DNA of 64,000 nucleotides. It comes from Candidatus Gottesmanbacteria bacterium (GTDB lineage: Bacteria; Patescibacteriota; Microgenomatia; UBA10105; UBA927). The translations under genes and the position numbers were made by a program. Below, one piece after another: positions 31,559 to 63,907 of this stretch. Below the pieces are notes generated by a model that was given only the letters and a program-made list of their open reading frames with translations, had not been told where the DNA came from and ran no database searches. How positions within the stretch are numbered: position 1 is the first letter of the stretch; every line of letters begins with the position of its first letter. The stretch covers positions 532,084-596,083 of the forward strand of contig OY970230.1 of assembly GCA_963714095.1 (NCBI GenBank), read 5' to 3'.

Positions 31559-31585
31559 GCTCCAAGCGGTTAAGGGTGTTTGGAC
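31559..31585 (+). repeat. repeat family R1, degenerate partial copy A (head only)
   Basis: gCTCCaAGCGGTtaAGGgtGTTtGGAC aligns to R1 head GCTCCGAGCGGTAGAGGATGTTCGGAC. Confidence 0.4.
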
Positions 31586-31599
31586 CTGCTTTTCCTGCT

Positions 31600-32190
31600 C
31601 TAATTAGACGTCACGGTAAATGCAGCTTTTATAGAAATATCATGAAGTGTCGGGTGTTGGTAGCTAAAAGTGATATTTCCGTTCCCAATACCGATCGGAA
31701 CTATCGTCGTATAGTTTTGATCGCCTGGCTTACTCGTCCAAACCATCGTCGGTATGACGTATATCGTTTCGTATGTTCCGTTCTGTATTTTCGTCGTATT
31801 AAATGTATATCCGGATGTATCGCTGTCTTTCCCTAAACCGTTAATTGCCAAAAGGCTGACAGTTGCGTAAGGAGCGTTCGGATTTGGAACGATGCCCACA
31901 ACATGCACGTTCACTTTTGTTCCGACCGGCCCATGCGTAGGGCTTACGGTCATGGTGATACCGTTTTGCGTAACAGTTTCACTATCTCCGGTTGTTGATG
32001 TAGGAATAAGGGTAGGTGAAGGAGTTCCAAGCTGTGCCCCTTGGGTTATCACAGGCAAATTTTGGACAGATACCTGACTGGTCTGACCTTTTTTAACAAA
32101 AAAGAGATAGCCACCGAGTCCTAAAAGAAACGCTAATAACCCGACAATGATTATGATAGGGATATTACCTCGTTGTTTAGAGATACTCAT
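31600..32190 (-). CDS. hypothetical membrane-anchored extracytoplasmic protein
   Basis: 196 aa; N-terminal TM IIIVGLLAFLLGLGGYLFFV; T/S-rich. Confidence 0.4.
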   Translation of the reverse strand: MSISKQRGNIPIIIIVGLLAFLLGLGGYLFFVKKGQTSQVSVQNLPVITQGAQLGTPSPTLIPTSTTGDSETVTQNGITMTVSPTHGPVGTKVNVHVVGIVPNPNAPYATVSLLAINGLGKDSDTSGYTFNTTKIQNGTYETIYVIPTMVWTSKPGDQNYTTIVPIGIGNGNITFSYQHPTLHDISIKAAFTVTSN

Positions 32191-32292
32191 AAATCTAGTA
32201 TTTCAGAGTTTGCAGAATTTGGCAAGCTCGCGACTTGACTTAAAACTGAGAAGCTACTTGATATTGTCTTGTAGTACGTTTACCATAAATGT

Positions 32293-32799
32293 ATGGGAAA
32301 AACGGTCGGCATTATCGTGGGAGTCGTAGTCGTCGCGGTCATTATATTCTTTGGTGTTACCTCAATGCATAAAAATCAAACCTCAGATATTCAGCCAACA
32401 AATTCTTCCTCCGCGTCTCAAACAAAAACAGCTGGAGGAAAACTTGTAACAACGTGTGCTCATTACGAAACGGGTTCTACCGGCTTTAAAGCAAATGACA
32501 CCTCACTCATACCGGCGGACGTTGCAGCCGTAGGTGCCGGCGAAACGTTGTGCGGGAGTCTTACCGAAACAAATTCGGTCTATTATTTGACTGACAAATC
32601 AGATACCCAAATCGAAGACATGTATAAAACAAAAATGACTTCCCGCGGATGTACGGTATCAGCTATAGTCACACCCGCTCCGGGCTCTGAAGTATATTCT
32701 CTAAATATATCGTTCTCCTGCGCCGACGGTCATTATTACGTCGGCACCGGCTTTAAAGATAACGGCTATTGGGTTACTTTCAGTCCTCCGAGAGAATAA
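32293..32799 (+). CDS. hypothetical membrane-anchored extracytoplasmic protein
   Basis: 168 aa; N-terminal TM; Cys-containing. Confidence 0.4.
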   Translation: MGKTVGIIVGVVVVAVIIFFGVTSMHKNQTSDIQPTNSSSASQTKTAGGKLVTTCAHYETGSTGFKANDTSLIPADVAAVGAGETLCGSLTETNSVYYLTDKSDTQIEDMYKTKMTSRGCTVSAIVTPAPGSEVYSLNISFSCADGHYYVGTGFKDNGYWVTFSPPRE

Positions 32800-32834
32800 T
32801 TCCTTACGTGAATCTACACTGAGTTTTCCGAAAT

Positions 32835-32866
32835 GCTCCGAGCGGTAAAGGATGTTCGGACTTATT
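32835..32866 (+). repeat. repeat family R1, copy B (head + ACTTATT, remainder replaced)
   Basis: GCTCCGAGCGGTAaAGGATGTTCGGACTTATT. Confidence 0.6.
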
Positions 32867-32873
32867 ACACGTA

Positions 32874-33017
32874 TTATCGGATTAACCCTAATCCGATAAC
32901 TCCGACAATAATCAGGTACGCAGCGACAAAATAATTAAGAAATTTCGGAAATATCAGAATCAATACGCCGAACGCAAGTGATGCAAGCGGCGTTAAATTG
33001 TTTGTAGATATATTCAT
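32874..33017 (-). CDS. small membrane protein (DUF3096-like), below ORF-track size cutoff
   Basis: 47 aa MNISTNNLTPLASLAFGVLILIFPKFLNYFVAAYLIIVGVIGLGLIR; strong RBS GGAGGTGAAAC 4 nt before ATG. Confidence 0.45.
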   Translation of the reverse strand: MNISTNNLTPLASLAFGVLILIFPKFLNYFVAAYLIIVGVIGLGLIR

Positions 33018-33046
33018 ATGTTTCACCTCCTTCCGCGTTACACACT

Positions 33047-33292
33047 TTATCTATTTCGTACCATGCGGCCAATATAAATAACGACAATAGCCCCAAGTAC
33101 CGCCACAATCATGCTATACAGATTAAATCCCGTCACACCCGATTGACCGAGGAGATTCATGATAAAACCCCCTACCACGGCCCCAACAATACCCATAACG
33201 ATATCCATCATGGCTCCTGCACCGGTTTTCATGATCATCGATGCTATCCACCCTACCAGAGCTCCAAATATGATCCACAGTAAAATACCCAT
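33047..33292 (-). CDS. GlsB/YeaQ/YmgE (transglycosylase-associated) family stress membrane protein
   Basis: MGILLWIIFGALVGWIASMIM...GIVGAVVGGFI hallmark; start taken at internal Met of ORF 33047..33328. Confidence 0.7.
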   Translation of the reverse strand: MGILLWIIFGALVGWIASMIMKTGAGAMMDIVMGIVGAVVGGFIMNLLGQSGVTGFNLYSMIVAVLGAIVVIYIGRMVRNR

Positions 33293-33340
33293 ATACCATT
33301 CACCCCCTAACGTTATATTTTTCGGCATCCAATCAGCTAT

Positions 33341-33799
33341 TTACTGATTATCAACCGATTGATTTACCTCTTCCTGATTCGTTGGCTTTACCAGTTGAAA
33401 AAGCGCAACGAGCCCATACGCTATGATTGCATACACCGCCATAGCAATGAGCGTTGACCATTCAAGAGTCATGTATGAAATTCCCGTAACGCCTAATATC
33501 CCTGCAAACGGCAAAGCGAAAGGATTACTCACCGCATAAATGAAATTAGTAAATCCGCTTCCTGCATTTGCCCCAAGGAGCTTGAGGAGAACTCTAAACG
33601 CCAAAACCACCTCAATGACACCCAGGATATACCAAATAACCTGATACGTACGAAAAATTGCTTTTTTGGTATCATACGTTTTTTGCGGCGATCCGGTAGT
33701 AACTGCCGGCTTCACTACTCTCGTTTGCTGAACAACCCGCTGTGTAGTAGGCGTCGATACTGTCGTTACTTCCTGTACGTCTGTATTTTGTTCTGTCAT
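33341..33799 (-). CDS. YggT-family membrane protein
   Basis: 152 aa; Q/T-rich N-terminus then YggT-like IWYILGVIEVVLAFRVLLKLLGAN...FIYAVSNPFALPF. Confidence 0.5.
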   Translation of the reverse strand: MTEQNTDVQEVTTVSTPTTQRVVQQTRVVKPAVTTGSPQKTYDTKKAIFRTYQVIWYILGVIEVVLAFRVLLKLLGANAGSGFTNFIYAVSNPFALPFAGILGVTGISYMTLEWSTLIAMAVYAIIAYGLVALFQLVKPTNQEEVNQSVDNQ

Positions 33800-34413
33800 G
33801 TTATTTCACCTCCTCCTTGTATTGTTTTATTTTTGTGAAATTCTTCGATTTTTGCTATCAACTCATTCACTTCATAGTTGGATGTGTCAATATTGTGCTC
33901 TGCAAAAGTCCGAAGTCCCTCAATAATCATTTGCACCCGGGCCGCTTTTTTTGCATCAAGATGACCAATCATAATATTATTTTCTGCAAACGTCCGGGAA
34001 ACGATCTCAAGTGTGGCAAAAAACGGTGACGATTCTATAAGCACATTTGAAATATCCTTTATATCCACGCTGTGTGATTGAGAGGCAAGAAACTGCCGGA
34101 AGATAAACGTTACTCTGCTTTCTTCAACCTCTATAGTGTTAGGAAACAACGTCCATGGAAACTGAGAAGAAATACTTATAATACATCTGTTGGATTTTTT
34201 TATTAAATCACTAACCGTTTGTTTGTCTTCTTCTTTTTTCGTCGCCTCATTGATCGTCTGTTCATTTTTACCTTCTTGCTGTAACGCTTGATCCGAGAGC
34301 CGGGGGATTTGCCGCACCTGTGTCATGGCAGGTATGCGATCTTGCCTTTTGGGATCGGCCTTTATGCGAGTATAAAGCGGTTGAGATATTCTGCTGAAGA
34401 TATTTATGTCCAT
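33796..34413 (-). CDS. hypothetical protein with possible bacterial PH-like C-terminal domain
   Basis: ORF 33796..34440; first 9 codons lie inside a perfect palindrome, so Met-10 (34413) is the preferred start. Confidence 0.4.
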   Translation of the reverse strand: MDINIFSRISQPLYTRIKADPKRQDRIPAMTQVRQIPRLSDQALQQEGKNEQTINEATKKEEDKQTVSDLIKKSNRCIISISSQFPWTLFPNTIEVEESRVTFIFRQFLASQSHSVDIKDISNVLIESSPFFATLEIVSRTFAENNIMIGHLDAKKAARVQMIIEGLRTFAEHNIDTSNYEVNELIAKIEEFHKNKTIQGGGEIT

Positions 34414-34445
34414 ACATATGTCTAAATATAATTTAGACATATGTA
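34413..34445. promoter_or_regulatory. perfect AT-rich palindrome (14-bp arms, 3-bp spacer, +1 flanking pair): tACATATGTCTAAAT-ata-ATTTAGACATATGTa; candidate operator
   Basis: seen directly; lies between RHH gene (34470..34745) and downstream gene start. Confidence 0.5.
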
Positions 34446-34469
34446 AACCCGTAAATCAGGTGGTAAAAA

Positions 34470-34745
34470 TTATCGAGGCACGGTGAGAGATTTCGTATGT
34501 TTCGGGGCTATTCGTTTTAATTTTAAATCCGCCTCATGAGTAAATGTGTCTATTGTGGAACTGTTGTCAAATTTAATGTGAATATGCTGATTACTATCTT
34601 TTTCAAGTTTGGGAGCGTACGCGTCAAGTGCCTTTTCCACTATCTCGGATAGCGTAAGGCCTTCCAGGGCCCCCCTGACCTTCGCACGTTTCATTAGCAT
34701 CGGATCAATAAATGCTGTAAGCCGTTGTTTTAAAATATTATTCAT
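34470..34745 (-). CDS. ribbon-helix-helix (CopG/Arc-like) DNA-binding protein, tentative
   Basis: 91 aa; N-terminal beta-strand + two helices pattern KQRLTAFIDPMLMKRAKVRGALEGLTLSEIVEKALDAY. Confidence 0.45.
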   Translation of the reverse strand: MNNILKQRLTAFIDPMLMKRAKVRGALEGLTLSEIVEKALDAYAPKLEKDSNQHIHIKFDNSSTIDTFTHEADLKLKRIAPKHTKSLTVPR

Positions 34746-34829
34746 CTATACATAGTCTGCACCTATTACAATTATTTGTCAAGTTACATATAGTTGTATA
34801 ATATGTAATGACCGTGTATACTATAAGAA

Positions 34830-35177
34830 ATGCTTATACTTATTCTCTTATTAGTGGTCGGCGCAATCATGGCGTATCTGGCACAAAATAACTCGATGTT
34901 AGTAACAGTACGCCTCGGAACATCTGTGCTCTCTGGCATTCCCCTCTTTTATGTCATCGTTGGTTGTCTTTTAACGGGTCTTGGGTTAGCGTACGTTATA
35001 TATCTTGTCAATTCAATTTTTACCGCCTTCTCCATGCACCGGAAGGATACGGCAATCAAACATGGAAAAAGTGATATTGTTGATCTGACGAAACGGATTC
35101 ATCAGCTGGAGTTAGAAAACGAGAGGCTTAAAAATAACTCCTCAGTTGTGGAGCCTCGGGATAAAAACGCGTTGTGA
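34830..35177 (+). CDS. LapA-domain (DUF1049) inner-membrane protein
   Basis: 115 aa; two TM then coiled coil LTKRIHQLELENERLKNN. Confidence 0.55.
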   Translation: MLILILLLVVGAIMAYLAQNNSMLVTVRLGTSVLSGIPLFYVIVGCLLTGLGLAYVIYLVNSIFTAFSMHRKDTAIKHGKSDIVDLTKRIHQLELENERLKNNSSVVEPRDKNAL

Positions 35178-35647
35178 AATCACTACTCGGTAAAGTGTGG
35201 AAATTATTAAACCTTCCAAAAGGCATCCAGTTGTTTTTTATGCGCTTTTTCCAAAATAAATTTCTCGTCGGTGTTACCGGAGTTGTATTTAATAAAAAAA
35301 ACGAGGTATTACTTTTTAAGCATACATATCGGCAACACTCCTGGAGTCTGCCGGGCGGATATCTAAAAGCCGGCGAGCACCCCTCTGAAGCAATTGAACG
35401 GGAAATAAAAGAGGAATCCCATTTAATCGTAAGTGTCGACGCCCCACTCGTTATCCGCACTGACCGAACCGCTTCTCGGTTGGATATTTGCTATATCGGG
35501 GTTTTCATCGGTGGAGAATTTACTCCAAGTCAGGAAGTATCTGAATATGGCTTTTTTTCACAGAACACTATGCCTTTATTAAGAAGTAATCAGGTTTTTT
35601 TAATAGAAAAAGCCCTCCAGCAAAAAAGATTGTCAGAAAAAAGATAA
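35174..35647 (+). CDS. NUDIX hydrolase
   Basis: Nudix box LPGGYLKAGEHPSEAIEREIKEESHL. Confidence 0.75.
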   Translation: MKSLLGKVWKLLNLPKGIQLFFMRFFQNKFLVGVTGVVFNKKNEVLLFKHTYRQHSWSLPGGYLKAGEHPSEAIEREIKEESHLIVSVDAPLVIRTDRTASRLDICYIGVFIGGEFTPSQEVSEYGFFSQNTMPLLRSNQVFLIEKALQQKRLSEKR

Positions 35648-35654
35648 ATAATTT

Positions 35655-35727
35655 TGCTCCCCGGCAGGATTCGAACCTGCAACCTTCTTCTTAACAGGAA
35701 GCCGCTCTACCGTTGAGCTACAGGGGA
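35655..35727 (-). tRNA. tRNA-Asn (anticodon GUU)
   Basis: minus-strand cloverleaf: D-arm GCTC-AACGGTA-GAGC, anticodon loop CUGUUAA, T-arm GCAGG-TTCGAAT-CCTGC; acceptor has one C-A mismatch (2-71) and 27-43 G-A. Confidence 0.7.
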
Positions 35728-35791
35728 ATATTAAGGAACGTGGTTATTATATCAGATTTATTCATATTTCGGGTGATATAATAGCCTCACT

Positions 35792-36442
35792 GTGAAAAAC
35801 ATTCTCCTCGTGCTACTCGCCTTTCTTCTGGGATTTGGCGGCGTTATGGAATATCACTATCTGCGAACCAAACAAACAGCAACAATAGTTGCACCTACAA
35901 CAACGAGCCGAGTTACGCCGGAGCCGACCTTTGCTCTCGTTCCCCCATCACAGGCGGTATCGGGAATATTAACCGTAACCAGTGGTCAAGCGGAAAAATT
36001 TTCGAGGAATGACACGCAATATAGAGAGGCCTCTTCCGGCGCCCAAATATTGATCGGCGAGTCCGTGGCAACAAAGGAAAATTCTACAGCCGCGGCCTCT
36101 GTAAGCGGCATCGTACGTGTCAACATGGGTCCGACAGCGGAACTGGTATTTGCAAACCTATTCCCCGACGATTTTGTCCTCCAGCAAACGACAGGGAAAA
36201 TCGAATATTTTGTTGACGCACCGATTTCCGTCCACGCACTCCACTCGCTCGTTAGCATGAACCCGGGCGACTTTATACTAAATATTATCGATACCGATAT
36301 GTCCATTACCGTAAATACCGGATCGGTAAAATTCGCACTTGTTGATAACGATAATAATACGAACGTGTGGAATTTGAACGCCGGGCAGCGCGCAAATATC
36401 GATGATGCGGCCCGCCAAGTGTATTTAGTACAGGCCAGATAA
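35792..36442 (+). CDS. hypothetical membrane-anchored beta-rich protein
   Basis: 216 aa; N-terminal TM; no recognisable motif. Confidence 0.4.
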   Translation: MKNILLVLLAFLLGFGGVMEYHYLRTKQTATIVAPTTTSRVTPEPTFALVPPSQAVSGILTVTSGQAEKFSRNDTQYREASSGAQILIGESVATKENSTAAASVSGIVRVNMGPTAELVFANLFPDDFVLQQTTGKIEYFVDAPISVHALHSLVSMNPGDFILNIIDTDMSITVNTGSVKFALVDNDNNTNVWNLNAGQRANIDDAARQVYLVQAR

Positions 36443-37609
36443 ATCGAGCGTATTTTTGTAATTTGTCAGGGGGCTGAGCATCGTAGTGTCCTCATATCCC
36501 AACGCCCAGAGAGCAATGCCACCGAGATGATATTTTTGGGCAAGCCCTATTTTTTCACCCACCGACGCTTTATTTTCAAAATAAATCTGGTTGAAATAAT
36601 CTCCCTCCGGATAAATCACGTATGGCTCGTGCGCAACCGGGTCCAACTGGGCCGAACACGACGCGCAATTGGCAAGGATATCCGCAACGCGACTGCTACT
36701 GGCAATCGACGAGCCGCCGGGAATGGTTGCCGACTCAGGAGCGGCATTTATTGTCTCCCACTCATACCCGTATAAAGGAATACCCAATAGTACTTTTTGT
36801 GACGGCATCACTTTCAATGCTTCTTTAACAGCCGTCTCCGTATCGTATTCAAGTGTGGTGCCTGCTCCCCCGATCGGCGCATTGGCACCGGAGGTAAACG
36901 ACCCCGCGTAGTGGTAATCATAGGTCATCAAAATCACACGATCGACAATCGCACCCAGCGCGCGGGCGTCATAGATATCGCTTTTCACCAGAGAAATCGG
37001 AATCAAATCAAGCGATACTGTTCCCAACTTTTGCGCTTTCACCTGATCCGTAACGGTTTTGACAAATGTCGTAAAATTTACCCGCGCGCTTTCGGATGCA
37101 GTCATAAAACTTTCAATATCAAGGTTTAAATCCGTAAACCCTTTGTCTTTCATAATCGGGGAAACGTCGGCAATGAGGTTGTTCGCACTGGTAACGGGGT
37201 CATCCATCATGGCGCTTATGACACTATCGTCCCCGCTTATCACCAGGAGTGATTGTTTTAAACCCTGCTTTTTTGCATTCGTCATATAGGTACCGAACGT
37301 GTCTCCTTTGAGCGCCGTCCACCCGGGTTCCTCTTCCTGCGGGTTCGTGAGCTTTTGAATCGTTCCGTCACTGTTGAGTGCAAGACCGAAATAGGTGAGC
37401 GTCGTAATATATTGGGAATAATCCTTATCCGCTTTATCCAGAAGCCAATACGGCAAAAATCCCACAATCTCGGGTTTATTCACGTTAAACGTTGTCAGGA
37501 TGGGGTTGTCAAACCGTACCGGAGCATTTCCTAAATAATAAAACGCTCCAAAAGCACTCAGTGCGCCCGCAATAAAAAAAATGATGAAAAGAAAATTTTT
37601 TTTAATCAT
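36425..37609 (-). CDS. glycoside hydrolase family 18-like (chitinase/YdhD-like) secreted protein
   Basis: 394 aa; signal/TM; GH18-like blocks FTDLNLDIESF (DxxDxDxE-like) and ILMTYDYHYAGS. Confidence 0.55.
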   Translation of the reverse strand: MIKKNFLFIIFFIAGALSAFGAFYYLGNAPVRFDNPILTTFNVNKPEIVGFLPYWLLDKADKDYSQYITTLTYFGLALNSDGTIQKLTNPQEEEPGWTALKGDTFGTYMTNAKKQGLKQSLLVISGDDSVISAMMDDPVTSANNLIADVSPIMKDKGFTDLNLDIESFMTASESARVNFTTFVKTVTDQVKAQKLGTVSLDLIPISLVKSDIYDARALGAIVDRVILMTYDYHYAGSFTSGANAPIGGAGTTLEYDTETAVKEALKVMPSQKVLLGIPLYGYEWETINAAPESATIPGGSSIASSSRVADILANCASCSAQLDPVAHEPYVIYPEGDYFNQIYFENKASVGEKIGLAQKYHLGGIALWALGYEDTTMLSPLTNYKNTLDLSGLY

Positions 37610-37682
37610 TACTTCGGTTTACCCAATCATACCATTGAGCCGTATATTCCCAAAACAACCATTATGTGATATTCTCCGGTAC

Positions 37683-41747: not shown

Positions 41748-41750
41748 TAC

Positions 41751-51029: not shown

Positions 51030-51060
51030 ACTTTATTATGCACAGAGATGCACAGGGTCG

Positions 51061-53265: not shown

Positions 53266-53269
53266 TCTG

Positions 53270-53566: not shown

Positions 53567-53671
53567 ACTATACTTACCGTAGCATATTTGTGCCGAAGAT
53601 AAAAGGTAAAACCAGGTGTCTGATGTGCCTGGCGGAAAGGGAGAGGTTTGAACCCAATTTTTTTCTGGTAA

Positions 53672-55654: not shown

Positions 55655-55872
55655 AGCGAAGAGGGCAGGATGACTTACGAACTTTTTACGCACGAGTCCC
55701 CGCCTTCCGGGAGTATTATATACCGTCATTAACCGAATAATGAAAATGGGTATCTGTTCGCCCTAGTAAATATGTTTAGTAACCGAGAAATAGAGTTTGG
55801 GTTTAGTTTGCAGAATATCAAAATTGTCTTTGAAACCTTCCTATAACAACCAGCTTACGCTTAATTAATAAA

Positions 55873-56061
55873 TCATTTTAAGTGAATATAAGCCCAAATT
55901 CCAATTGCCACTATTTCAATAAGACTGATCAAAAATACTAACATACCAAGCGAGTGTATTCTTGAATGTATCCCATTGTTCTTAATGGCATAAAACAACA
56001 CGAAATTATTAACGGCTATAATAATTACAACAAAAACAATAAGGCTAGTTCTGAGTTCCAT
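55873..56061 (-). CDS. small two-TM membrane protein
   Basis: 62 aa hydrophobic. Confidence 0.25.
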   Translation of the reverse strand: MELRTSLIVFVVIIIAVNNFVLFYAIKNNGIHSRIHSLGMLVFLISLIEIVAIGIWAYIHLK

Positions 56062-56297
56062 AAAATATCCTTACAAATACATTGTCCTCTCAATTCAAAA
56101 AGGAATCAATTTTGAGGCTAATTTGCTCGCTCAATGAGACGATTTTCGTACGGTTAATTGGATATCTAACCTAGGGAAACCCGATTCGATTCTCCGGGAA
56201 ACCACACAATTACTTCAAAATTAATAGACGGATTCTAAACTTAAAATATGGTTATAGAAAAGATCAGAACATGTTATTAAAATTTTATATTTATAAA

Positions 56298-58592
56298 CTA
56301 AGGTTTAAGTATCTCCTTATAAAGATAAATTGGACCGCACCCCCAGGCATGGGAATAACTTGAGAGTTCTTCTGCCGTACCCGGAGTATAGTATTCATAT
56401 ATTGTAGTTGCCCCGTCTTTAATCATTCCGCCCCAATAGTTTCTCATTGTCTCTAAAGCCGTATCCCGTCTCCCTACATTAAGCAACCATTCAACAACCC
56501 AGCTTTCAGAAAATGGGTCAGCTGTATAGAGTTTTTCCCCGAAGCTCTTGGCAACCTCCTCAGACTTTCCAGGAGGAAAAATTCCGATTGATCCAGCCAG
56601 CGCGTTGGTAACTAAGCTTTCACCCTTAGATTGTTCTTCTAAGGAAAAACTATCCACGAATAGACCTGTTTTACTGTCGTATCCGTATTTAAGCAGATTG
56701 GCCTCAATTTTATCAGCTTGTTGGGTAAAATTTTCCTCTGGTTGATCGGCTTCCTTTGCTATCAACGCCGCCGAACGTAAAGCTTGGTAGTACCAAATTT
56801 GAAAACCAGTAATAAACTGTTTACTCCTATCGATTGGGGACCAGTCAATAAAGACCTGCCACTTAGTATCCAACAGTTCTTGTGAACCAGCATTTTTCTC
56901 AGCCCAGTTCATAACTTTTTCAACCGTTGGCCACATTTCTTTTGCAAAGGAAGCATCTTTAGTTTTAGTAAGATAATCGTCCACCCAAACAACCCATTGA
57001 AACACATAATCATAAATGATTATTGGATCTCCCGATGGTGACATGGCAGGTAGCAATCCATCATTATTTTGGCCTTGCGCAAATTGCCTAATCATTTGAC
57101 TAACTAATCTAGAATTATCGCCATTGACCATTAAACAGCGTGAAACTTCTCTGGCATCACCAATATACATAGCTTTTTCTCTCACAACGCTATCCTCGAA
57201 ATGATCTTGGACATTATTTTTTAAAGTATTTATTGCCAACTCGTATATCTGCTGATCAATTTCTTGCCCAAACTCAGTTATTTTTGGTTCAACAAAGGGC
57301 ATCCCAACTATTTTAAATCCAAGTTCTAGTTCGTTCTCACACGCCGATTTATCTATCTGGATATATCGGCCGGACCGGCGAGAAAACTGTTCCCAATTTA
57401 TTTCTCCTTCAGTAAATACTATTTTGTCATCCTGGGACGTCTCCTCAATCTTCTTATCAACAGTAAGTTTGTCTCCCCATGAGACTGAAAGAGTGCAGTT
57501 TTTCTCTAGAGAACCTTTGGCGGTGAGATAGCCTACCATTGTCCTACCTAAGTCATATACCCCCGAACCCATATCGTTAACCGGTTCTTTTTTCTCAACG
57601 AGTAAGGGGGTTTGTCTCGGCTCGGGAATATACTCTTTAAAATCAATTTTTTCGGGAGTTTTCCAAGACATATTGTCATCTTTTGTTAAATCAATTTCTT
57701 CCGAATATGCAGCAACCGGAGATATTTTTACACCATTTTTCCACCCGTCATTACGAGCAGTTTGCCAGAGACGGCTATCGGCAAGATTGTGAGTTATTAT
57801 TCCATCCTTTATCTCCCCACCCACTAGCAGTCCAGGCGAGGGATAAGTAGCGTGCTGGTGGTATTTTTCGTTGGAATAATTACAAACTATTAAGATTTCG
57901 TTTCTTCCTTTCCTAATATTTCCCCCTATGTCGATTTGGTCGTAATAAATCCTTGGGGGAACTGCATAACTTGGACCATGATACAAACTCTCTCCATTCA
58001 CAATTAATTGATAATCTCCCAAACAGGAGACTAAAATCTTTGCAGTGGACGAGGAATATTTTTGATTCCACTCATACCTAAAGCTTGTATATGGATAGAT
58101 ATTATTATCATCTCCATAACGCCAAATCCACACCAGGGATTTTGACCAGGGATATTTTAAATCCCAGTGAGTGTTAATAATTAGTTTATCCCAGGAGTCT
58201 CCAATTATTTTTGTAACAGGAACTAGCCACAAGAGAGTCAAAACCAAACCAACTAACACGATTTTTCGTCTTTGAGGTAGCACAATCAGTGACGTCAGAA
58301 CGATAATAATTGGCAAACAAATAAATAAGTATGCCAGCCTCTCATCCCACCAATGAATTCTTATCCAGGCGGGAAATAATGGAGAAGTAACTAAGTTTCC
58401 AATGTGGGAGTAGATTTTGTAGATCAAGTTTAATCCAAAATTTAACCGTTGCTGGGGTAGGACGTGTTTGCGAACCAGAAGTATGGCGCTCTCCCCTAAT
58501 CGATGTTTTGGATAAAATACTGAGGCTGATTCGAATCCAAGAAACAAGATTAACAGAAAAATGGTGATCCATATCAACATTTTTCTTTTCAT
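56298..58592 (-). CDS. membrane-anchored (N-terminal ~5 TM) protein with large C-terminal six-hairpin glycosidase-like domain (GH78/GH63/GDE-like)
   Basis: 764 aa; C-terminal WGGMIKDGATTIYEYY...SHAWGCGPIYL resembles (alpha/alpha)6 glycosidase C-termini; AT-rich. Confidence 0.45.
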   Translation of the reverse strand: MKRKMLIWITIFLLILFLGFESASVFYPKHRLGESAILLVRKHVLPQQRLNFGLNLIYKIYSHIGNLVTSPLFPAWIRIHWWDERLAYLFICLPIIIVLTSLIVLPQRRKIVLVGLVLTLLWLVPVTKIIGDSWDKLIINTHWDLKYPWSKSLVWIWRYGDDNNIYPYTSFRYEWNQKYSSSTAKILVSCLGDYQLIVNGESLYHGPSYAVPPRIYYDQIDIGGNIRKGRNEILIVCNYSNEKYHQHATYPSPGLLVGGEIKDGIITHNLADSRLWQTARNDGWKNGVKISPVAAYSEEIDLTKDDNMSWKTPEKIDFKEYIPEPRQTPLLVEKKEPVNDMGSGVYDLGRTMVGYLTAKGSLEKNCTLSVSWGDKLTVDKKIEETSQDDKIVFTEGEINWEQFSRRSGRYIQIDKSACENELELGFKIVGMPFVEPKITEFGQEIDQQIYELAINTLKNNVQDHFEDSVVREKAMYIGDAREVSRCLMVNGDNSRLVSQMIRQFAQGQNNDGLLPAMSPSGDPIIIYDYVFQWVVWVDDYLTKTKDASFAKEMWPTVEKVMNWAEKNAGSQELLDTKWQVFIDWSPIDRSKQFITGFQIWYYQALRSAALIAKEADQPEENFTQQADKIEANLLKYGYDSKTGLFVDSFSLEEQSKGESLVTNALAGSIGIFPPGKSEEVAKSFGEKLYTADPFSESWVVEWLLNVGRRDTALETMRNYWGGMIKDGATTIYEYYTPGTAEELSSYSHAWGCGPIYLYKEILKP

Positions 58593-58670
58593 ATCTATTT
58601 AATTAAGGGTTAATTTGTATATATTATTGTTTGTCAATTGGATCCACCTGATGGACAGGTTCAGAACCTA

Positions 58671-59000
58671 TTACAATTCTGTCTTGTCAATTAGTAGGTA
58701 AATATCAAAGGCCACTTCTTCATAGGGGTGAACTTTCTTAATTGCTTTAATTATTTCTTTGGCTTTGTCTTTCGGGCAAACAAATTCGATCCTCTCCTCT
58801 TCAACTTCTTCGGGTTTCCCAACTTCACCAATAGCTGGTCTTGCTCCCTTCTGGAGATTAAATCTACCTACACCTTTACTGGAGAAACTACAATTTTTGT
58901 AATTACCGATTACTCCACCACCAGCATCACCAATAGCTTTTCTAACAATATCTGTGTGGGTCAGTGGAACAAAAACGACAATCTTTACTATTTCTCCCAT
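58671..59000 (-). CDS. PII-fold protein homologous to the Nif3/YqfO insert domain (COG3323-like)
   Basis: 109 aa; KIVVFVP..H...V..A...AG.G.IGNY..CSF...G.G.F.....A.P.IGEVG....VEE.R.E.V.P pattern. Confidence 0.45.
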   Translation of the reverse strand: MGEIVKIVVFVPLTHTDIVRKAIGDAGGGVIGNYKNCSFSSKGVGRFNLQKGARPAIGEVGKPEEVEEERIEFVCPKDKAKEIIKAIKKVHPYEEVAFDIYLLIDKTEL

Positions 59001-59039
59001 AACTGAAGTATATCAAAAAGTTCTAATTGTGCCTATCTA

Positions 59040-59102
59040 GCTCCGGGCGGTAGAGGATGTTTGCACTTATTTTAGGTTCAAATCCCGCTTCCTGTCAGGC
59101 TA
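59040..59102 (+). repeat. repeat family R1, copy C (full: head + tRNA-T-arm-like middle + tail)
   Basis: gCTCCGgGCGGTAGAGGATGTTtGcACTTATTTtAGGTTCAAATCCCGCTTCCTgTcAGGCTA. Confidence 0.65.
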
Positions 59103-59181
59103 GGTTATATTTCCTACATCGCAAAGTCAGAACTCGTTTTTGTAACGGTACAAACACATATTTTAATCGAAAATATATGGT

Positions 59182-59198
59182 TGTACGTGATGGCGGAG
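59182..59198 (-). other. duplicated fragment of a tRNA-Ser 3' end plus 12-nt downstream flank (TGTAyGTGATGG-CGGAG), matches 63973..63989
   Basis: tgtacgtgatggcggag vs tgtatgtgatggcggag at the partial tRNA at window end; sequence diverges immediately after. Confidence 0.5.
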
Positions 59199-59583
59199 CA
59201 TACAGGTCTGGAACCCTTATGTCCGTATAATCCCCTCGTACTTCTTACTGGTATTGTACCAGATTGCGTTCTATAGTCGAAGCTAAATTAAACAGGTTTA
59301 TAATTGGGTTGTATATAATTTTTTTAGGTAAAGGAGATAAGCCAGGCGATAATACGGTTGAATTGTTTATGACGAAGAAAACGTTGGGTGTTAATACGAT
59401 TGAAAAACGAAGTGATAAATGGCAAGTAGTGTGATCGTTATGTGCGTATCCTTCGTTATGTATTATGTATATATAATAAAGGGCATTAGTATTTTTTCGT
59501 TATTAGCCTCAAAAAGTCGTACTTTCTGTGTAAACGCGCTTACACAGAAAAACTACAACATCTTCATAACCGAAAACTTTCTG

Positions 59584-59670
59584 CGGAGAGGGCGGGATTT
59601 GAACCCGCGATCACCTTGCGGCGATACGCGCTCTCCAAGCGCGCGCACTAGGCCACTATGCGACCTCTCC
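59584..59670 (-). tRNA. tRNA-Ser (anticodon GGA), type II
   Basis: GGAGAGG-TC-GCA-TAGTGGCCTAG-TGC-G-CGCGC-TTGGAGA-GCGCG-long variable arm-GCGGG-TTCAAAT-CCCGC-CCTCTCC-G. Confidence 0.85.
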
Positions 59671-59699
59671 AATAGCCATAATTATACTATAATGATCCC

Positions 59700-60611
59700 A
59701 TGTCTTCCCGAATGAAGGCTGTCTTCGTATTAATTCTTGCGGAACTTTTGTGGTCAACGTCCGGACTTGCCAAAATAGTAGTGCGGGAGCTAGATCCATA
59801 TGTAGCTGCGTTCCTGCGATTCTTTATTGCGTCTCTGGTCATCCTGCCGTTTTTTCTTAACGAGCACGTCCAGAGAAAAAATCTCATCAGGGATCTATTG
59901 CCGCTCTCTTTGGCAAGCGCCGCAAATATCCTGTTTTATTATGTCGGTCTCCAATTTTCTACCGCAAATGCTGCCACACTTATCTATGCGGGCGTTCCGC
60001 TGGTTACCGCACTTATTGCCCATCACATGATCGGTGAACGGCTTAATATGCAAAAAATTATCGGTATTTGTATCGGCCTTGTCGGTGTAGTATTCGTAGC
60101 ACTGTTACCCGCAATATTTCGCGGGGAATCCGTTACCGGCAATATCCGCGGGAATATCTTTTTCGTGTGTGCGGTACTGGCGTGGTCCTTGTATACTATC
60201 GGGTCACGCAAAGCTATAGCCAACCAAAAATATTCACCTCTTACAGTAGCCAGCATGTCCATTTTTACCACCGGCGCACTTTTTTTTATAATCAGCCTTT
60301 TTACATTTCAACCGCACTATTGGATAACCCTCAAACAGCCGTCGCTTCTGCTCCTTATTCTGCATCTCGGGACAATTGTTACTGTTGCCACGTTTCTTCT
60401 CTATCAGTGGGTCATTAAACATTCATCCGCGGGAACCGCAGCTCTGGGAAACTATATCGGCCCGATATTTGCTATCCTCAGTAATGTGATATTCCTGGGT
60501 GAAGTTATAACTCCTGCATTCATTCTCGGAACCGCGCTTATTCTTATCGGCATCGTGGTGATATCAGGAAGCGGCCTTCTGCAAGAAGCGAAAGATTGGA
60601 TAAACAAATAA
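59700..60611 (+). CDS. DMT-superfamily (EamA/RhaT) transporter
   Basis: 303 aa, 10 TM in two EamA halves. Confidence 0.8.
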   Translation: MSSRMKAVFVLILAELLWSTSGLAKIVVRELDPYVAAFLRFFIASLVILPFFLNEHVQRKNLIRDLLPLSLASAANILFYYVGLQFSTANAATLIYAGVPLVTALIAHHMIGERLNMQKIIGICIGLVGVVFVALLPAIFRGESVTGNIRGNIFFVCAVLAWSLYTIGSRKAIANQKYSPLTVASMSIFTTGALFFIISLFTFQPHYWITLKQPSLLLLILHLGTIVTVATFLLYQWVIKHSSAGTAALGNYIGPIFAILSNVIFLGEVITPAFILGTALILIGIVVISGSGLLQEAKDWINK

Positions 60612-60614
60612 TTG

Positions 60615-60686
60615 CGCTCTCGTGCAGAGTCGAACTGCAATCACACCCTTCGGAGGGGCGTATTCTATCCATTGAACTACGAGAGC
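60615..60686 (-). tRNA. tRNA-Arg (anticodon CCG)
   Basis: GCTCTCG-TA-GTTC-AATGGATA-GAAT-A-CGCCC-CTCCGAA-GGGTG-TGAT-TGCAG-TTCGACT-CTGCA-CGAGAGC-G; 5' end overlaps stop of CDS 60677..61090 by ~10 nt. Confidence 0.85.
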
Positions 60687-61090
60687 TTTCCCAAATCTCC
60701 ATTGAGTACAATCACTTTCATTGCATGCATCTCAACGCTGTAATCCATCTTCGGAACCGGATACAAAAGATATATCTTTTTATCCAACCCAAACGCGTAT
60801 CCCATCTCTAAAAACGTGTTGCCTCCGATGTAACCGTTTACTCCTTTTTTCTCATAATTCAAAACAAGTATCGCATCGGATTTTTCTATTTTTCTGAAGT
60901 GCTCGCGGATAAAATCATATTCTATTTTCGTTGATATTTTATCTGCATCCCGATTCATAAACGATTCATTCGTTTTTTTATTCCCGAGCTCTGTCGGCAC
61001 CAATACACGGAGGCCCTGCGCTTCGAGTTCTTTTTGCGCTTTTGCCATTTGTCGATAAAACTGCATGCTGCCGCAGATGGTGATAGTCAT
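60677..61090 (-). CDS. nucleoside 2-deoxyribosyltransferase-like (NDT fold) protein
   Basis: 137 aa; MTITICGSM...ILVLNYEKKGVNGYIGGNTFLEMGYAFGL matches NDT-like Rossmann motif; start codon only 3 nt downstream of tRNA-Ser 3' end. Confidence 0.5.
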   Translation of the reverse strand: MTITICGSMQFYRQMAKAQKELEAQGLRVLVPTELGNKKTNESFMNRDADKISTKIEYDFIREHFRKIEKSDAILVLNYEKKGVNGYIGGNTFLEMGYAFGLDKKIYLLYPVPKMDYSVEMHAMKVIVLNGDLGKLS

Positions 61091-61093
61091 AAG

Positions 61094-61182
61094 CGGAAAG
61101 GGCGAGATTCGAACTCGCGTAGGCCCTTTCGGACCTCCAAGGTTTTCGAGACCTGGCCGTTTAACCGCTCCGGCACCTTTCC
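61094..61182 (-). tRNA. tRNA-Ser (anticodon CGA), type II
   Basis: GGAAAGG-TG-CCGGAGCGGTTAAACGG-CCAGGT-CTCGAAA-ACCTTGG-variable hairpin AGGTCCGAAAGGGCCT-GCGAG-TTCGAAT-CTCGC-CCTTTCC-G. Confidence 0.8.
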
Positions 61183-61184
61183 CT

Positions 61185-61259
61185 TGGCGCTCCCGCGCAG
61201 AATCGAACTGCGATCAGAGGTTCCGCAAACCCCTATTCTATCCGTTAAACTACAGGAGC
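61185..61259 (-). tRNA. tRNA-Arg (anticodon read as GCG; G37), CCA encoded
   Basis: GCTCCTG-TA-GTTT-AACGGATA-GAAT-A-GGGGT-TTGCGGA-ACCTC-TGAT-CGCAG-TTCGATT-CTGCG-CGGGAGC-G-CCA; D-arm identical to tRNA-Arg(CCG); 2-nt spacer to tRNA-Ser. Confidence 0.7.
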
Positions 61260-61289
61260 CATAGCGGAGCTTATTATACCGCAAAAAGG

Positions 61290-61826
61290 TTATGAAGGCT
61301 TCTCGAGGGGAATTTTCTTTGACAACCATGAGGATGCGTTATCCATCCAACTTTTCTCCGGTTTTTCCCGGAAAGGAATATACTGGGCGATAAGTTTACG
61401 GACCAACGATTTATCCTGAACTCCTAAAAGGATAATAATACGCATGCCCATGATGGGCCGCAAGACCAATAAATCCTGCCCCCACTGCTCTTCAAACCAA
61501 AACTCAGAGAGCTCTTCCCACCGGTAATAATGCCCGGCACTTTCAACCCCCAAGTTGGTAATCCTGTGTGTTACGTCCTCCGGAGGTACAGTGGAAAGAA
61601 CAACAATAAGAAATACGATAGACACGGCAGCTGCAATGAGTAAATATTCCTGTGCGAATACTAAAATTATAACAAGAGGCAACATGATCACCCCGACATT
61701 GGTATAAAACTCTTTATCCCTCTTTTTAAACAAACGGGATGGGGAAGACCATGCGAGCAGTACCTCTTGTTGAACTTTTACCTGTGTATCGCCGGCATTA
61801 TCAACCATGAGATTAGTATATATCAA
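61290..61826 (-). CDS. hypothetical membrane protein (two TM)
   Basis: 178 aa. Confidence 0.4.
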   Translation of the reverse strand: MIYTNLMVDNAGDTQVKVQQEVLLAWSSPSRLFKKRDKEFYTNVGVIMLPLVIILVFAQEYLLIAAAVSIVFLIVVLSTVPPEDVTHRITNLGVESAGHYYRWEELSEFWFEEQWGQDLLVLRPIMGMRIIILLGVQDKSLVRKLIAQYIPFREKPEKSWMDNASSWLSKKIPLEKPS

Positions 61827-61866
61827 AAGAAAAGAAATCCAAAGGGCGGAGAACGGTTTACAGTGT

Positions 61867-61917
61867 TATAACCTATTATAAAACTACAATCCTACCTACG
61901 GAACAATTGAATTATAA
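61867..61917 (+). repeat. repeat family R2, copy a (preceded by GCGGAGAAC tRNA-3'-end-like motif at ~61849)
   Basis: tataacctattataaaactacaatcctacctacggaacaattgaattataa ~85% identical to 63311..63361. Confidence 0.6.
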
Positions 61918-61943
61918 CCCAAATTTAATTTATTAAATCTGAG

Positions 61944-62324
61944 TCAAGCATTCTTCGGGGAACCCCCAAAAGCTACCTCATTTCCATCCGGGTCGTTGTA
62001 TATAATTTTGCGGACGCCGTTTGAAAGAGTTTCGTTTTTCGTTGGTTGTAATCCACGTTCGGCTACTTGATTCATGAAAATATCAAGGTCACTAAGGAAA
62101 ACAAGATTAGAAGTATGACCTGCATGTTTAGGACGTACTGTAATATACACGTACCTATGTTCCGCAAGTTCCCATACTGCTTCTACATCATTAGGAAAGA
62201 ATGATGGTGAACGACCGAACAAACGCGTATACCAAACAAGAGATGTTGTGTAATCTTTGACGGGAAATCCAGCAAACAGATCGGTAGTTAGTTCATCTGA
62301 AAATACTCTTTTTGCCTTTACCAT
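61944..62324 (-). CDS. VOC (glyoxalase/bleomycin-resistance) family protein
   Basis: 126 aa; two beta-alpha-beta-beta-beta halves typical of VOC fold. Confidence 0.5.
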   Translation of the reverse strand: MVKAKRVFSDELTTDLFAGFPVKDYTTSLVWYTRLFGRSPSFFPNDVEAVWELAEHRYVYITVRPKHAGHTSNLVFLSDLDIFMNQVAERGLQPTKNETLSNGVRKIIYNDPDGNEVAFGGSPKNA

Positions 62325-62365
62325 TTCAAATCCATTATACGCCTAATTTTATGTATATAGGCACC

Positions 62366-62436
62366 TACAGTTCGAGGCTAATTTTTAATGCTCCGGGCGG
62401 TAGAGGATGTTCGAATCTTTTTTTTACTTATTTAAA
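62366..62436 (+). repeat. repeat family R1, copy D (tail-like CAGTTCGAGGCTAA precedes head; T8 tract inserted)
   Basis: acagttcgaggctaatttttaatGCTCCGgGCGGTAGAGGATGTTCGaAtCttttttttACTTATTTAAAC. Confidence 0.6.
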
Positions 62437-62616
62437 CTTCACGACATCTCTCAAGAAGTAAAGAAAAACCAGAACTGATGCTAAGAGAGTTAACCAATCA
62501 CGAATTGTATGTGATTCAAAAATATCATGGAAAGTCATCCAGTCGACAAACAAAAGCAAGAATACGATGATCCACATGAGGGTCGTTTTGATTTTCATAA
62601 TCGGTCTCATTTCCAT
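62428..62616 (-). CDS. small two-TM membrane protein
   Basis: ORF 62428..62673 trimmed to internal Met so that it abuts upstream small gene. Confidence 0.3.
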   Translation of the reverse strand: MEMRPIMKIKTTLMWIIVFLLLFVDWMTFHDIFESHTIRDWLTLLASVLVFLYFLRDVVKFK

Positions 62617-62789
62617 CGATAGAGATGCACGGCGATATACATCGCTAGCATCCCAAGGGCGAAGCCCGCACATACTGTGACAACGTCATGGAAAGGTTTC
62701 CAGATGACACCAAACCATGAGAGCATAAGAATAATCGCCCACACAACAGCAACTCCGATTACATACACATAGAGCGGTCGCTTGTTCAT
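62607..62789 (-). CDS. small two-TM membrane protein
   Basis: 60 aa. Confidence 0.3.
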   Translation of the reverse strand: MNKRPLYVYVIGVAVVWAIILMLSWFGVIWKPFHDVVTVCAGFALGMLAMYIAVHLYRWK

Positions 62790-62882
62790 ATGTACATTCT
62801 AGCACTGAGGTGTGACAATCAAAAGTTCTGGTGTCCAGTTGGGGTATCAAAAATCCGATTGAAAAATAAGGTTGAAAAAACA

Positions 62883-62910
62883 GCTCCGAGCGGTTGAGGG
62901 AGTTCAGGCT
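62883..62910 (+). repeat. repeat family R1, copy E (head fused directly to tail, middle deleted)
   Basis: GCTCCGAGCGGTtGAGGgAG|TTCAGGCT. Confidence 0.55.
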
Positions 62911-62941
62911 TTTTAAAGGATTAAGAGAGTATAATAAATAC

Positions 62942-63145
62942 ATGAGCAAGTCTACAAAGATTATCGTCGGTATTATGGCTGTTATTCTGATTATCGTAGT
63001 TGGCTTTGTATTGCTTAAAAAGCGAGGCGGGACACAGGGATCGTTATTCTCTCCTAACAACCCTTCCCAAAACGCCTCTGGTCTTGAGCATATTATTCGT
63101 CCACTCATGAATGGTGGTGCTCCCGGGGACGGGGGTGGCGGATAA
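62942..63145 (+). CDS. small membrane-anchored Gly-rich protein
   Basis: MSKSTKIIVGIMAVILIIVVGFVLL...GGAPGDGGGG; internal-Met start of ORF 62894..63145. Confidence 0.3.
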   Translation: MSKSTKIIVGIMAVILIIVVGFVLLKKRGGTQGSLFSPNNPSQNASGLEHIIRPLMNGGAPGDGGGG

Positions 63146-63204
63146 AAGGAGTGCTGGTGTTGTGTTAGTACCTTATATTGTCAGGACGCTCCAAACTCTA
63201 TTTT

Positions 63205-63276
63205 GCTCCGAGCAGTAGAGGATGTTCGGACTTATTTAAGGTTCAAATCCCGCTTCCTCTTAGCTTCAGGCTAAAC
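63205..63276 (+). repeat. repeat family R1, copy F (full-length reference copy)
   Basis: GCTCCGAGCaGTAGAGGATGTTCGGACTTATTTAAGGTTCAAATCCCGCTTCCTCTTAGCTTCAGGCTAAAC. Confidence 0.7.
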
Positions 63277-63310
63277 TTACTTTTGAGGCTGCGGAGAACC
63301 ATTATCAATA

Positions 63311-63361
63311 ATATAACCTACTTCAAGACTACAATCCTGCCTATGGAACAATTAAATTACA
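63311..63361 (+). repeat. repeat family R2, copy b (preceded by CTGCGGAGAACC, a tRNA-Ser 3'-end-like motif, at 63288)
   Basis: tataacctacttcaagactacaatcctgcctatggaacaattaaattacaa. Confidence 0.6.
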
Positions 63362-63404
63362 ACAGTCATTTTTTATTCAATTAACCAGCAAAGGTGCTTT
63401 TTAA

Positions 63405-63851
63405 TTATTTTATTTTCTTAGCAACCATACTGTATCCGCCACCAGGCCATTGCCATGCACCTTTAAAAGAGCTGCCTTCCTTATTAAATGTCCCTCTATA
63501 AAAGTTGTTTGAACCTTTTTCACCAAACCAAATGGTAAGCGTGTTATCAATCAGTTCGTAGACATAATCAAGAGTTAAACCTTCTGTAAAATGGTAAAAT
63601 CGGGACCATATATCTTGACTTGGTTTTTCTCCAACTTTTTGCAGGTGTCCAATCATCTCAATACCTCGTATTTGTTTTCCCTCATATTCAAGATCCACAT
63701 CTTGGATAAGGAAAGGGCCGCCCTCAGCCCATTTGTATTCTATCTGTCCTTTTGCATCACCGGATATTTCCCATGTTCCGACTAATTTCTCCAAATCCTT
63801 CAGGTTAGTCATATATTTCATCTCCTCTGTCTGTTTACCAGAACCATACAT
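63405..63851 (-). CDS. hypothetical cytoplasmic protein
   Basis: 148 aa (or 135 aa from Met-14 MTNLKDLEKL); Trp/Gly-rich beta-type sequence. Confidence 0.4.
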   Translation of the reverse strand: MYGSGKQTEEMKYMTNLKDLEKLVGTWEISGDAKGQIEYKWAEGGPFLIQDVDLEYEGKQIRGIEMIGHLQKVGEKPSQDIWSRFYHFTEGLTLDYVYELIDNTLTIWFGEKGSNNFYRGTFNKEGSSFKGAWQWPGGGYSMVAKKIK

Positions 63852-63875
63852 GTAATTTATCCTGGAACTGTCATG

Positions 63876-63907
63876 AGGTTCAAATCCCGCTTTCTCTCAA
63901 GCTAAAG
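63876..63907 (+). repeat. repeat family R1, copy G (middle + tail only)
   Basis: AGGTTCAAATCCCGCTTtCTCTcAaGCTAAAG. Confidence 0.55.

Follow-up and report, generated by a model that had tools for sequence, protein, structure and literature searches.

A 33-nt intergenic sequence, GCTCCGAGCGGTAGAGGATGTTCGGACTTATTA, here called the head, is repeated in one fixed orientation along a 64-kb stretch of a Gottesmanbacteria genome (contig OY970230.1, 64,000 nucleotides; hereafter the window) and in related Patescibacteria. We tentatively regard the head as a lineage-specific extragenic repeat of Gottesmanbacteria-type Patescibacteria, similar to repetitive extragenic palindromic (REP) elements and carrying a polar terminator hairpin. 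This is the explanation that we prefer, and our confidence in any single mechanism is modest. The repeats had been noticed in a preliminary description of the window, made from its sequence alone, as a family named R1 with seven copies built of a head, a deletable middle and a tail. That a genuine dispersed repeat family is present, and that its window copies are all intergenic, was borne out. The composite architecture was not, because across the approximately 36 copies now recognized only the 33-nt head is held in common, and the 'middle' is present in copies C, F and G only, where it reproduces the 3′ end of tRNA-Ser(GGA). The head itself has no likeness to tRNA, and R1 is therefore made up of two unrelated sequences that adjoin by chance in copies C and F.

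A pattern search recovers the heads of the window and gave no matches in 100 shuffles; the 33-mer can be written as the pattern GCTCCRRGCRGTWRAGGRWGTT. Repeat finding groups the same heads as family D2, nhmmer assigns them E-values of 5e-10 to 9e-8, and a covariance model run with its filters off scores them at 43–62 bits, with no head at E<1 on the − strand of the window and none in its 0–24 kb and 33–59 kb regions. Six full heads, all on the + strand, were found in this way (A–F, Table 1). Five of them, A, B, C, E and F, stand as first described, whereas head D begins at 62390 and not at 62366; its T-rich insertion is real and is located in the tail. The supposed half copy G (63875) carries the 'middle' without a head, and copy E, which had been thought to join head to tail directly, has instead a variant 3′ arm, GTTCAGGC for GTTCGGAC. 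The 'tail', TAGCTTCAGGCTAAAC, is not a repeated module: it occurs once even when three mismatches are allowed, with 0.38 occurrences expected by chance. Two further copies had been overlooked, the partial head H and a decayed remnant orthologous to the intact head at 11747 of a related locus, L068. So had the two strongest regularities of the family, namely its fixed orientation and its contact with the stop codon of an opposite-strand gene.

Copies outside the window, whose contigs or loci carry L-numbers with the head position as a suffix, were first recovered by exact degenerate-pattern scans and then extended with nhmmer. About 30 further heads lie in 18 contigs of Patescibacteria/Gottesmanbacteria type, so that the condition under which the preliminary description would have withdrawn the family, absence of the motif from other sequence, did not arise. 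The pattern scans placed heads in metagenome-assembled genomes (MAGs) of Roizmanbacteria (L018) and Gottesmanbacteria (L019, L030 and L045), in two MAGs labelled Gammaproteobacteria (L014/L056 and L038/L043, of which L038 is syntenic with the window) and in twelve metagenome contigs. Matches in Micromonospora and other genomes outside the candidate phyla radiation (CPR) were read as chance because they are GC-rich and protein-coding-like and lack both the AT-rich flanks and the extension. In an all-against-all comparison, positions shared by the whole family span only about −2 to +34, with a sharp 5′ edge at GCTCC and a 3′ edge after the T-rich tail, and positions 0–25 of the pattern-recovered copies are conserved partly by construction. 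One subgroup (F, L072, L064-440 and L038-7213) has an upstream extension reaching to about −65, which in head F covers about −53 to −1 and is common to the L072, L064 and L038 copies; another (L062, L063 and L066) shares sequence to +41. Within the first subgroup, the extensions at 63152–63204 of the window and at 2150–2213 and 3795–3859 of L072 hold a Shine-Dalgarno-like box and a GCTGGTG string, together with mini open reading frames (ORFs) of 3–6 codons (MLMLY*, LVLFY* and LVLC*). A full-text literature search returned no match for the head sequence and no relevant work on integrons or repeats in Patescibacteria, nothing relevant was found among viral contigs or in phage and plasmid records, and neither the head nor the repeats matched any Rfam family at gathering or permissive thresholds, down to a search of 161 nt. 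Four short-read contigs (L074, L075, L085 and L086) belong to the same strain as the window, at 99.7–100% identity. Two of these, L085 and L086, start approximately 25 nt past head D, which points to an assembly break caused by the repeat; heads may account for short-read assembly breaks at such sites.

The orientation of the head is uniform. No flipped head was found among the 29 copies on nine contigs with at least two copies each (2^-20), despite flanking genes on either strand, and the sole opposite-strand match is a weak partial head in L030 (E 0.2). When the head is read 5′ to 3′, the gene that follows it is on the opposite strand in 25 of 34 contexts, and in 19 copies the stop codon of that gene falls between −6 and +45 nt from the head tail (median approximately 6 nt). 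In at least six copies the stop is inside the tail, whose TTA forms it in head D and in L072-2214, L030, L067, L073 and L056-525. Heads occupy 19% of the intergenic spaces whose right-hand gene is on the − strand and 8% of the others (Fisher p 0.04). To its left a head has either an opposite-strand gene that starts 16–100 nt away and has a leaderless-type promoter of its own, or a same-strand gene that ends 13–87 nt away. Heads are at least 322 nt apart (322–1646 nt in the same-orientation arrays, with one or two genes between them), and they cluster in lower-GC stretches with small accessory genes (24.8–32.9 kb and 59–63.3 kb). The genes beside the copies are unrelated accessory genes; the window as a whole is ordinary chromosome, with rpoD, dnaG, purA/B, guaB, clpC and genes for penicillin-binding proteins identified by Pfam, and the named homologues of one of its core proteins, of 172 aa, come from Gottesmanbacteria-type members of the CPR.

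This uniformity points to strand-specific spreading or to a replication-linked constraint. The second of these could take the form of a polar DNA site that binds a protein and is linked to replication direction, Ter-like or acting as a block to head-on transcription. Such a site would explain why orientation is uniform whatever the orientation of the genes, and conservation of sequence without covariation would agree with it as well. In the window and in most long loci the head is carried by the C-rich, presumably lagging, strand, and rpoD, dnaG and all five tRNA genes of the window are on the opposite one. Evidence from skew is weak, however, as head-strand GC skew is negative in seven of eight informative long loci (sign test p 0.07) and L038 and L064 have the opposite skew. 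Copies are also clustered in accessory islets (five in 4.2 kb) and absent from the long intervals named above, they decay at orthologous sites, and close relatives lack them, all of which makes a replication site very improbable.

The consensus RNA read from the head strand folds into an 8-bp stem (UCCGAGCR/YGUUCGGA) with an 8-nt loop, followed by CUUAUUU. Heads F and B reach −11.6 and −10.7 kcal/mol (z about −2.2), the former being the best hairpin of the window, and minimum free energies average −7.1 kcal/mol for the head strand of 35 copies, −4.2 for the complement and −5.4 for shuffles. Pair 14–27 is G·U in 29 of 31 copies, so the fold is strand-specific. In the head helix 90% of alignment cells pair, and the earlier observation that the hairpin lacks compensatory support held; an alternative D-arm-like helix never varies informatively. 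Consensus copies have the geometry of an intrinsic terminator on the head strand (stem of at least 5 bp, loop of 3–8 nt, U tract), and a terminator pattern scan flags heads F and D. They resemble intrinsic terminators further in having a U-rich tail 1–2 nt past the stem, a stability of about −11 kcal/mol and a position at the ends of transcription units, and differ from them in that heads share sequence and not just shape, that most are on the wrong strand for the gene whose 3′ end they face, that covariation is lacking, and that the genome holds ordinary GC-rich terminators as well. The position at transcription-unit ends, the strand-specific G·U stem and the U tail argue that intact copies stop transcription on the head strand, and, to judge from these features of the sequence, terminator activity is what intact heads most likely have. 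A mini-ORF beginning at the loop ATG (MFGLI...) was considered and rejected, as its Shine-Dalgarno-to-ATG spacing is approximately 0–1 nt and its stops are not conserved.

The hairpin and U tail could alternatively be the 3′ terminator of very small RNAs, transcribed from a TATNTT −10-like box or from the divergent promoter of the left-hand gene. A weak TATNTT is present at −6 to −1 (A at −5 in 22/32 copies, T at −1 in 24/32), and the loop GAGGAUG, which we take to be Shine-Dalgarno-like, may resemble the GGA motif of CsrA sites. A start 6–8 nt past TATNTT would nevertheless remove the 5′ arm of the hairpin, there is no consistent −35 box and no Rfam family, upstream parts are not conserved and the copies decay, so that we give this origin very little credence. 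Somewhat better placed, though still unlikely, is the possibility that the functional strand is the complement, where the element would lie in the 3′ untranslated region at operon ends as a putative Rho-entry or protein-binding site or as a 3′-end stabiliser. The same 25 of 34 copies lie just past the stop of the last gene of a complementary-strand operon, RNA read from that strand is rich in C and poor in G (in the 22-nt core, 10 C and 3 G) and folds worse than shuffles, and it is sequence rather than pairing that is conserved. Against this, the copies L072-3860, L068-8211 and L064-1840 are flanked by + strand genes and yet keep the orientation of their contig, orthologous heads drift at or above the neutral rate, and most copies lack a U tract after the hairpin on the complement strand.

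The rate of drift was apparent from the relatives of the window, L068/L045, L019 and L038, whose shared genes are 70–89% identical at the nucleotide level. Head B and L068-253 both follow an orthologous DUF3096 gene and match at 26/33 positions; head A and L068-12720 share the derived CCAAGC arm and yet match at only 24/33, next to a DUF347 gene that is 89% identical. Orthologous heads are in this way 73–79% identical where the genes flanking them are 83–89% identical, and the head upstream of DUF347, intact in L068, is decayed in the window. Non-orthologous heads in other genomes, on the other hand, match at 30–33/33, as do head B and L072-3860, on an unrelated contig, at 32/33. No heads were found in four other genomes with a 76–78% identical DUF347 gene, beside homologues of cargo genes (a 148-aa gene and DUF347) in other genomes, in a second region of the genome carrying L019, or, with the exception of one decayed copy (L090), in stretches of 18–20 kb that surround the corresponding tRNA cluster in the four closest relatives compared. 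With orthologues drifted, unrelated copies near the consensus and relatives lacking the motif, the sequences indicate that the pattern is that of a repeat family born near its consensus and then decaying, not of sites held in place by selection.

The same loci invite comparison with gene cassettes. The head might be a recombination site that works like the attC site of integrons, with a unit made up of promoter, ORF and reverse-complemented head, a crossover at the GCTCC edge and a recombinase encoded elsewhere. This would fit the same-orientation arrays with their spacings and intervening genes given above, the site abutting or overlapping the ORF stop, the sharp conservation edge distal to the ORF, and the accessory and low-GC nature of the cargo. 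It would also fit the arrangement in L068, where DUF347 is flanked by two heads and head 12720 directly follows it, and in the window, where DUF347 and head A are separated exactly by an inserted DUF4256 gene that has a promoter of its own; head-bounded blocks are at different places in the two. The lack of heads beside cargo homologues argues against the head travelling with those genes, however, and L068 contains a large insertion, compared with the window, whose left junction is without a head. Nor did Pfam searches find a tyrosine recombinase or IntI, or any other integrase or recombinase, among the 70 ORFs of the window or the approximately 30 ORFs beside external copies. We think it improbable that the heads are cassette sites.

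As a class assignment, attC fails, and with it the attC-like reading of the preliminary description. Like integron arrays, including clusters of attC sites lacking integron integrases (CALINs), the heads are arrayed in a single orientation at the 3′ ends of short accessory ORFs, whose stops they often overlap, with one strand folding better than the other and one or two genes per interval. Unlike attC sites, they lack the R″/R′ cores (RYYYAAC/GTTRRRY): their arms are TCCGAGC and GTTCGGA, of which the left has no AAC and the right departs from the consensus at positions 4 and 7, and only L018 (GTTAGAC) fits the core. There is no second site pair (L″/L′), the conserved unit is 33 nt with 8–10 nt between the arms, short of the minimum of 55 in the 55–141 nt range, and the head sequence itself is conserved between cassettes, which carry their own promoters. 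Folding as single-stranded DNA (ssDNA), which the preliminary description had proposed for the bottom strand, gave no stable hairpin; minimum free energies are −2.6 to −6.3 kcal/mol with z of +0.9 to −1.6, and extended copies fold no better than shuffles. A relationship to miniature inverted-repeat transposable elements (MITEs), also proposed, found no support either, as the flanks of 32 aligned copies show no target-site duplication and the only inverted repeat is the internal hairpin, so that terminal inverted repeats are absent. What remains of the proposal of a DNA-level element is that turnover resembles that of a DNA-level repeat and that no RNA fold is backed by covariation. Clustered regularly interspaced short palindromic repeats (CRISPR) were considered as well; there are no regular 25–50-nt spacers, and no public contig has more than two exact matches.

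The closest likeness is to REP elements and to their inverted doublets (REPINs), which are mobilised by RAYT, a Y1 HUH transposase. The head is a short imperfect palindrome of approximately 35 nt, strictly extragenic, multi-copy and lineage-specific, often a few bases from stop codons, and it has a conserved consensus with decaying copies. It differs in being co-oriented, with no inverted doublets (the weak L030 partial is the only candidate), and in having a weak stem with GTAG in the loop rather than 5′ of the stem. No RAYT gene was found by Pfam in the 64-kb window of the 1.09-Mb genome, and the head family spans several genera and is yet sparse or absent in close relatives. The subterminal hairpins of IS200/IS605 elements and of their miniature derivatives, palindrome-associated transposable elements (PATEs), are likewise small, strand-specific hairpins that occur as direct and not inverted repeats, with an orientation biased along the chromosome, but the heads have no paired left and right ends, no nearby TnpA or TnpB and no defined target tetranucleotide, and the better-folding head strand is apparently the leading-strand template and not the lagging-strand one.

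For a REP-like terminator repeat we envisage the following course. The consensus would encode an intrinsic-terminator-type module on the head strand, with G·U pairs built in, whose U-rich tail reads as stop codons (TAA) on the other strand. Near-consensus copies would arise or be homogenised through some trans-acting copying or recombination process, and new copies would settle where transcription units end, always oriented the same way along the chromosome, and from then on decay neutrally. An intact copy would act as a one-way stop for transcription on the head strand, coming from a convergent gene (13 contexts) or otherwise from antisense or divergent transcripts, and would often also supply the stop codon of its opposite-strand neighbour. 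Mobility or homogenisation is thus our interpretation of the turnover described above.

Several points weigh against this explanation. A same-strand gene lies upstream in only 13 of 34 contexts. The second stem pair, 10–31, is a C·A mismatch in 14 of 31 copies, which leaves a hairpin of about −6 kcal/mol and weakens the terminator geometry in approximately 45% of copies, and in the 31-copy alignment covariation of the main helix does not exceed that of shuffles. Canonical GC-rich terminators (repeat family D13, Table 1) are also present in the genome, so the organism also uses ordinary intrinsic terminators. REPs usually occur in inverted pairs together with a RAYT gene, neither of which was seen here, and the Pfam searches of the window and of the ORFs beside external copies found no transposase of any kind; protein clustering showed no family recurring beside copies apart from syntenic orthologues. 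No clean pair of filled and empty sites was found and no target-site duplication, the near-identity of many copies outside the window is partly an ascertainment effect of the search patterns, and the link between orientation and replication is drawn from GC skew only. It is also conceivable, with a rather low probability, that the head is the site of an undescribed polar CPR system, either a minimal integron-like recombination site or a replication-oriented block to head-on or antisense transcription, in which case the strict co-orientation would reflect function and not history.

Repeat families and mechanisms of gene flux are almost undescribed in the reduced genomes of the CPR. The head is short, conserved and strictly co-oriented and marks the 3′ ends of accessory genes in variable islets, and could therefore provide a handle on how accessory genes are acquired and shuffled in the CPR, on how transcription ends there, and on a possible motif-encoded polarity of the chromosome, as well as a searchable signature for one Gottesmanbacteria clade. 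Should it prove to be no more than a selfish repeat in decay, only the host would be unusual, and the element itself an ordinary one of REP type.

The 'middle', AAGGTTCAAATCCCGCTTCCTCT, was found by pattern search only at 59073, 63238 and 63875 of the window and, beyond it, in one relative. It aligns to the 3′ end of the tRNA-Ser(GGA) gene of the window (59583–59670, − strand), GGTTCAAATCCCGC[TT]CCTCT, with 19/21 positions matching and a score reached by 0/500 shuffles; being significantly tRNA-Ser-like, it is an entity separate from the head. The three fragments are on the + strand, span the T-loop to the acceptor and each contain a 2-nt insertion. They look like displaced tRNA-Ser(GGA) 3′ fragments left by rearrangement or integration at the tRNA cluster. 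In that respect they are like the tRNA 3′-end att duplications of genomic islands, with three such T-loop-to-acceptor fragments close to a tRNA cluster which in every relative is a hot spot of variation; they are unlike them in being on the strand opposite to the present tRNA-Ser(GGA) gene and in having the 2-nt insertion, with no integrase present. Heads C and F together with the tRNA fragment and the 'tail' can form an imperfect hairpin of approximately 70 nt (z −0.6 to −1.9, two examples).

Three heads (C, F and L038-7865) abut a tRNA-Ser fragment, the region is rich in tRNA genes and fragments, including a second repeat, D7, and by eye the head is like a D-arm (GCTC...GGTAGAG) and its complement like a T-loop plus acceptor. 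On these grounds the head could be a tRNA-gene scar, namely the att-site duplicate that remains when an element integrates into such a gene. This is largely refuted and is the explanation to which we assign the lowest probability. Compared with 16 tRNAs the head does not score above shuffles on either strand (86/500 and 384/500), no Rfam tRNA match was found even in the 161-nt search, no intact tRNA contains the head, most copies are far from tRNA fragments and no integrase was found. Low-threshold ARAGORN with introns allowed returned noise only and no tRNA support for the head.

Table 1. Heads, tRNA-Ser(GGA) fragments and canonical terminators in the window, with match to the 33-nt consensus and gene context.
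Feature	Coordinates	Strand	Sequence features	Context
Head H (partial)	24839..24861	+	3′ two-thirds, AGTAGAGGATGTTTGGACTTTTT; 5′ arm GCTCCGAGC absent; repeat family D4, nhmmer E 0.0035	3 nt from stop of − strand PKD-domain gene 24866-27190; 26-35 nt past + strand rhodanese gene
Decayed head remnant	30055..30088	+	CACCGAAGCAATTATATCAGAGAGTTCGAATACC; identified by alignment and synteny with L068	upstream of DUF347 gene
Head A	31559..31591	+	24/33; arms CCAAGC/GTTTGG	8 nt from stop of − gene 31600-32190; 38 nt upstream of start of − gene 30948-31520 (DUF4256)
Head B	32835..32867	+	32/33	between convergent genes; 35 nt past + gene 32293-32799; 6 nt from stop of − gene 32874-33026 (DUF3096)
Head C	59040..59072	+	29/33	39 nt upstream of start of − gene 58671-59000
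Head D	62390..62437	+	27/33 over first 33 nt; 11-nt T-rich insertion in tail	stop codon (62428-62430) of − gene 62428-62673 within displaced tail ACTTATTT
Head E	62883..62915	+	27/33; arm variant	between divergent genes, an exception to the usual position at a gene 3′ end
Head F	63205..63237	+	31/33	60 nt past + gene 62942-63145
tRNA-Ser(GGA) 3′-end fragment ('middle' of C)	59075..59095	+		abuts head C
tRNA-Ser(GGA) 3′-end fragment ('middle' of F)	63240..63260	+		followed by unique 'tail' 63261-63276
tRNA-Ser(GGA) 3′-end fragment (former copy G)	63877..63897	+		without head
Canonical bidirectional terminators	8513-8541, 11887-11915, 13300-13328		A tract, stem CCCGC...GCGGG, T tract	

The surroundings of the tRNA cluster contain further tRNA-like sequence. 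Repeat D7 is found at 61846–61918 and 63291–63363 of the window and at 7090–7167 of L038, with 79–86% identity, and begins with GGCGGAGAAC, the reverse complement of the tRNA-Ser 3′ terminus; low-threshold ARAGORN reports 61834–61913 (− strand) as a tRNA with a 4-nt anticodon. D7 may be a degenerate tRNA-like gene or an island end. The 480 nt from 59100 to 59580 contain no ORF and no Rfam match and are probably a tRNA remnant; at 59187 this stretch holds GTGATGGCGGAGCATACAGG, which is like the flank and 3′ end of a partial tRNA at the window end (63970–64000). A further tRNA 3′ end (TGGCGGAGAGGGTGGGATT..., with encoded CCA) is cut by the window edge at 63975–64000 (− strand). When 61830–64000 is compared with L087–L090, every relative has different genes in the space that adjoins a conserved 172-aa gene on the side where, in the relatives, the genes for thiamine pyrophosphokinase and SmpB lie. 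This variable hot spot contains the densest cluster of heads.

Two observations concern the genome more generally. A promoter-like consensus, T(A/C)GAAC-TTTT-TGATATACT-N6-ATG, recurs before unrelated genes, with sites at about 59001–59035 (− strand) of the window and upstream of heads in L018 and L064. Its recurrence suggests that leaderless mRNAs with an extended −10 box are widespread in the lineage. Finally, the tandem genes 2927–5161 and 5173–7557 share DNA segments that are 70–79% identical; the first encodes a class A penicillin-binding protein with transglycosylase and transpeptidase domains, and the second is an apparent paralogue.

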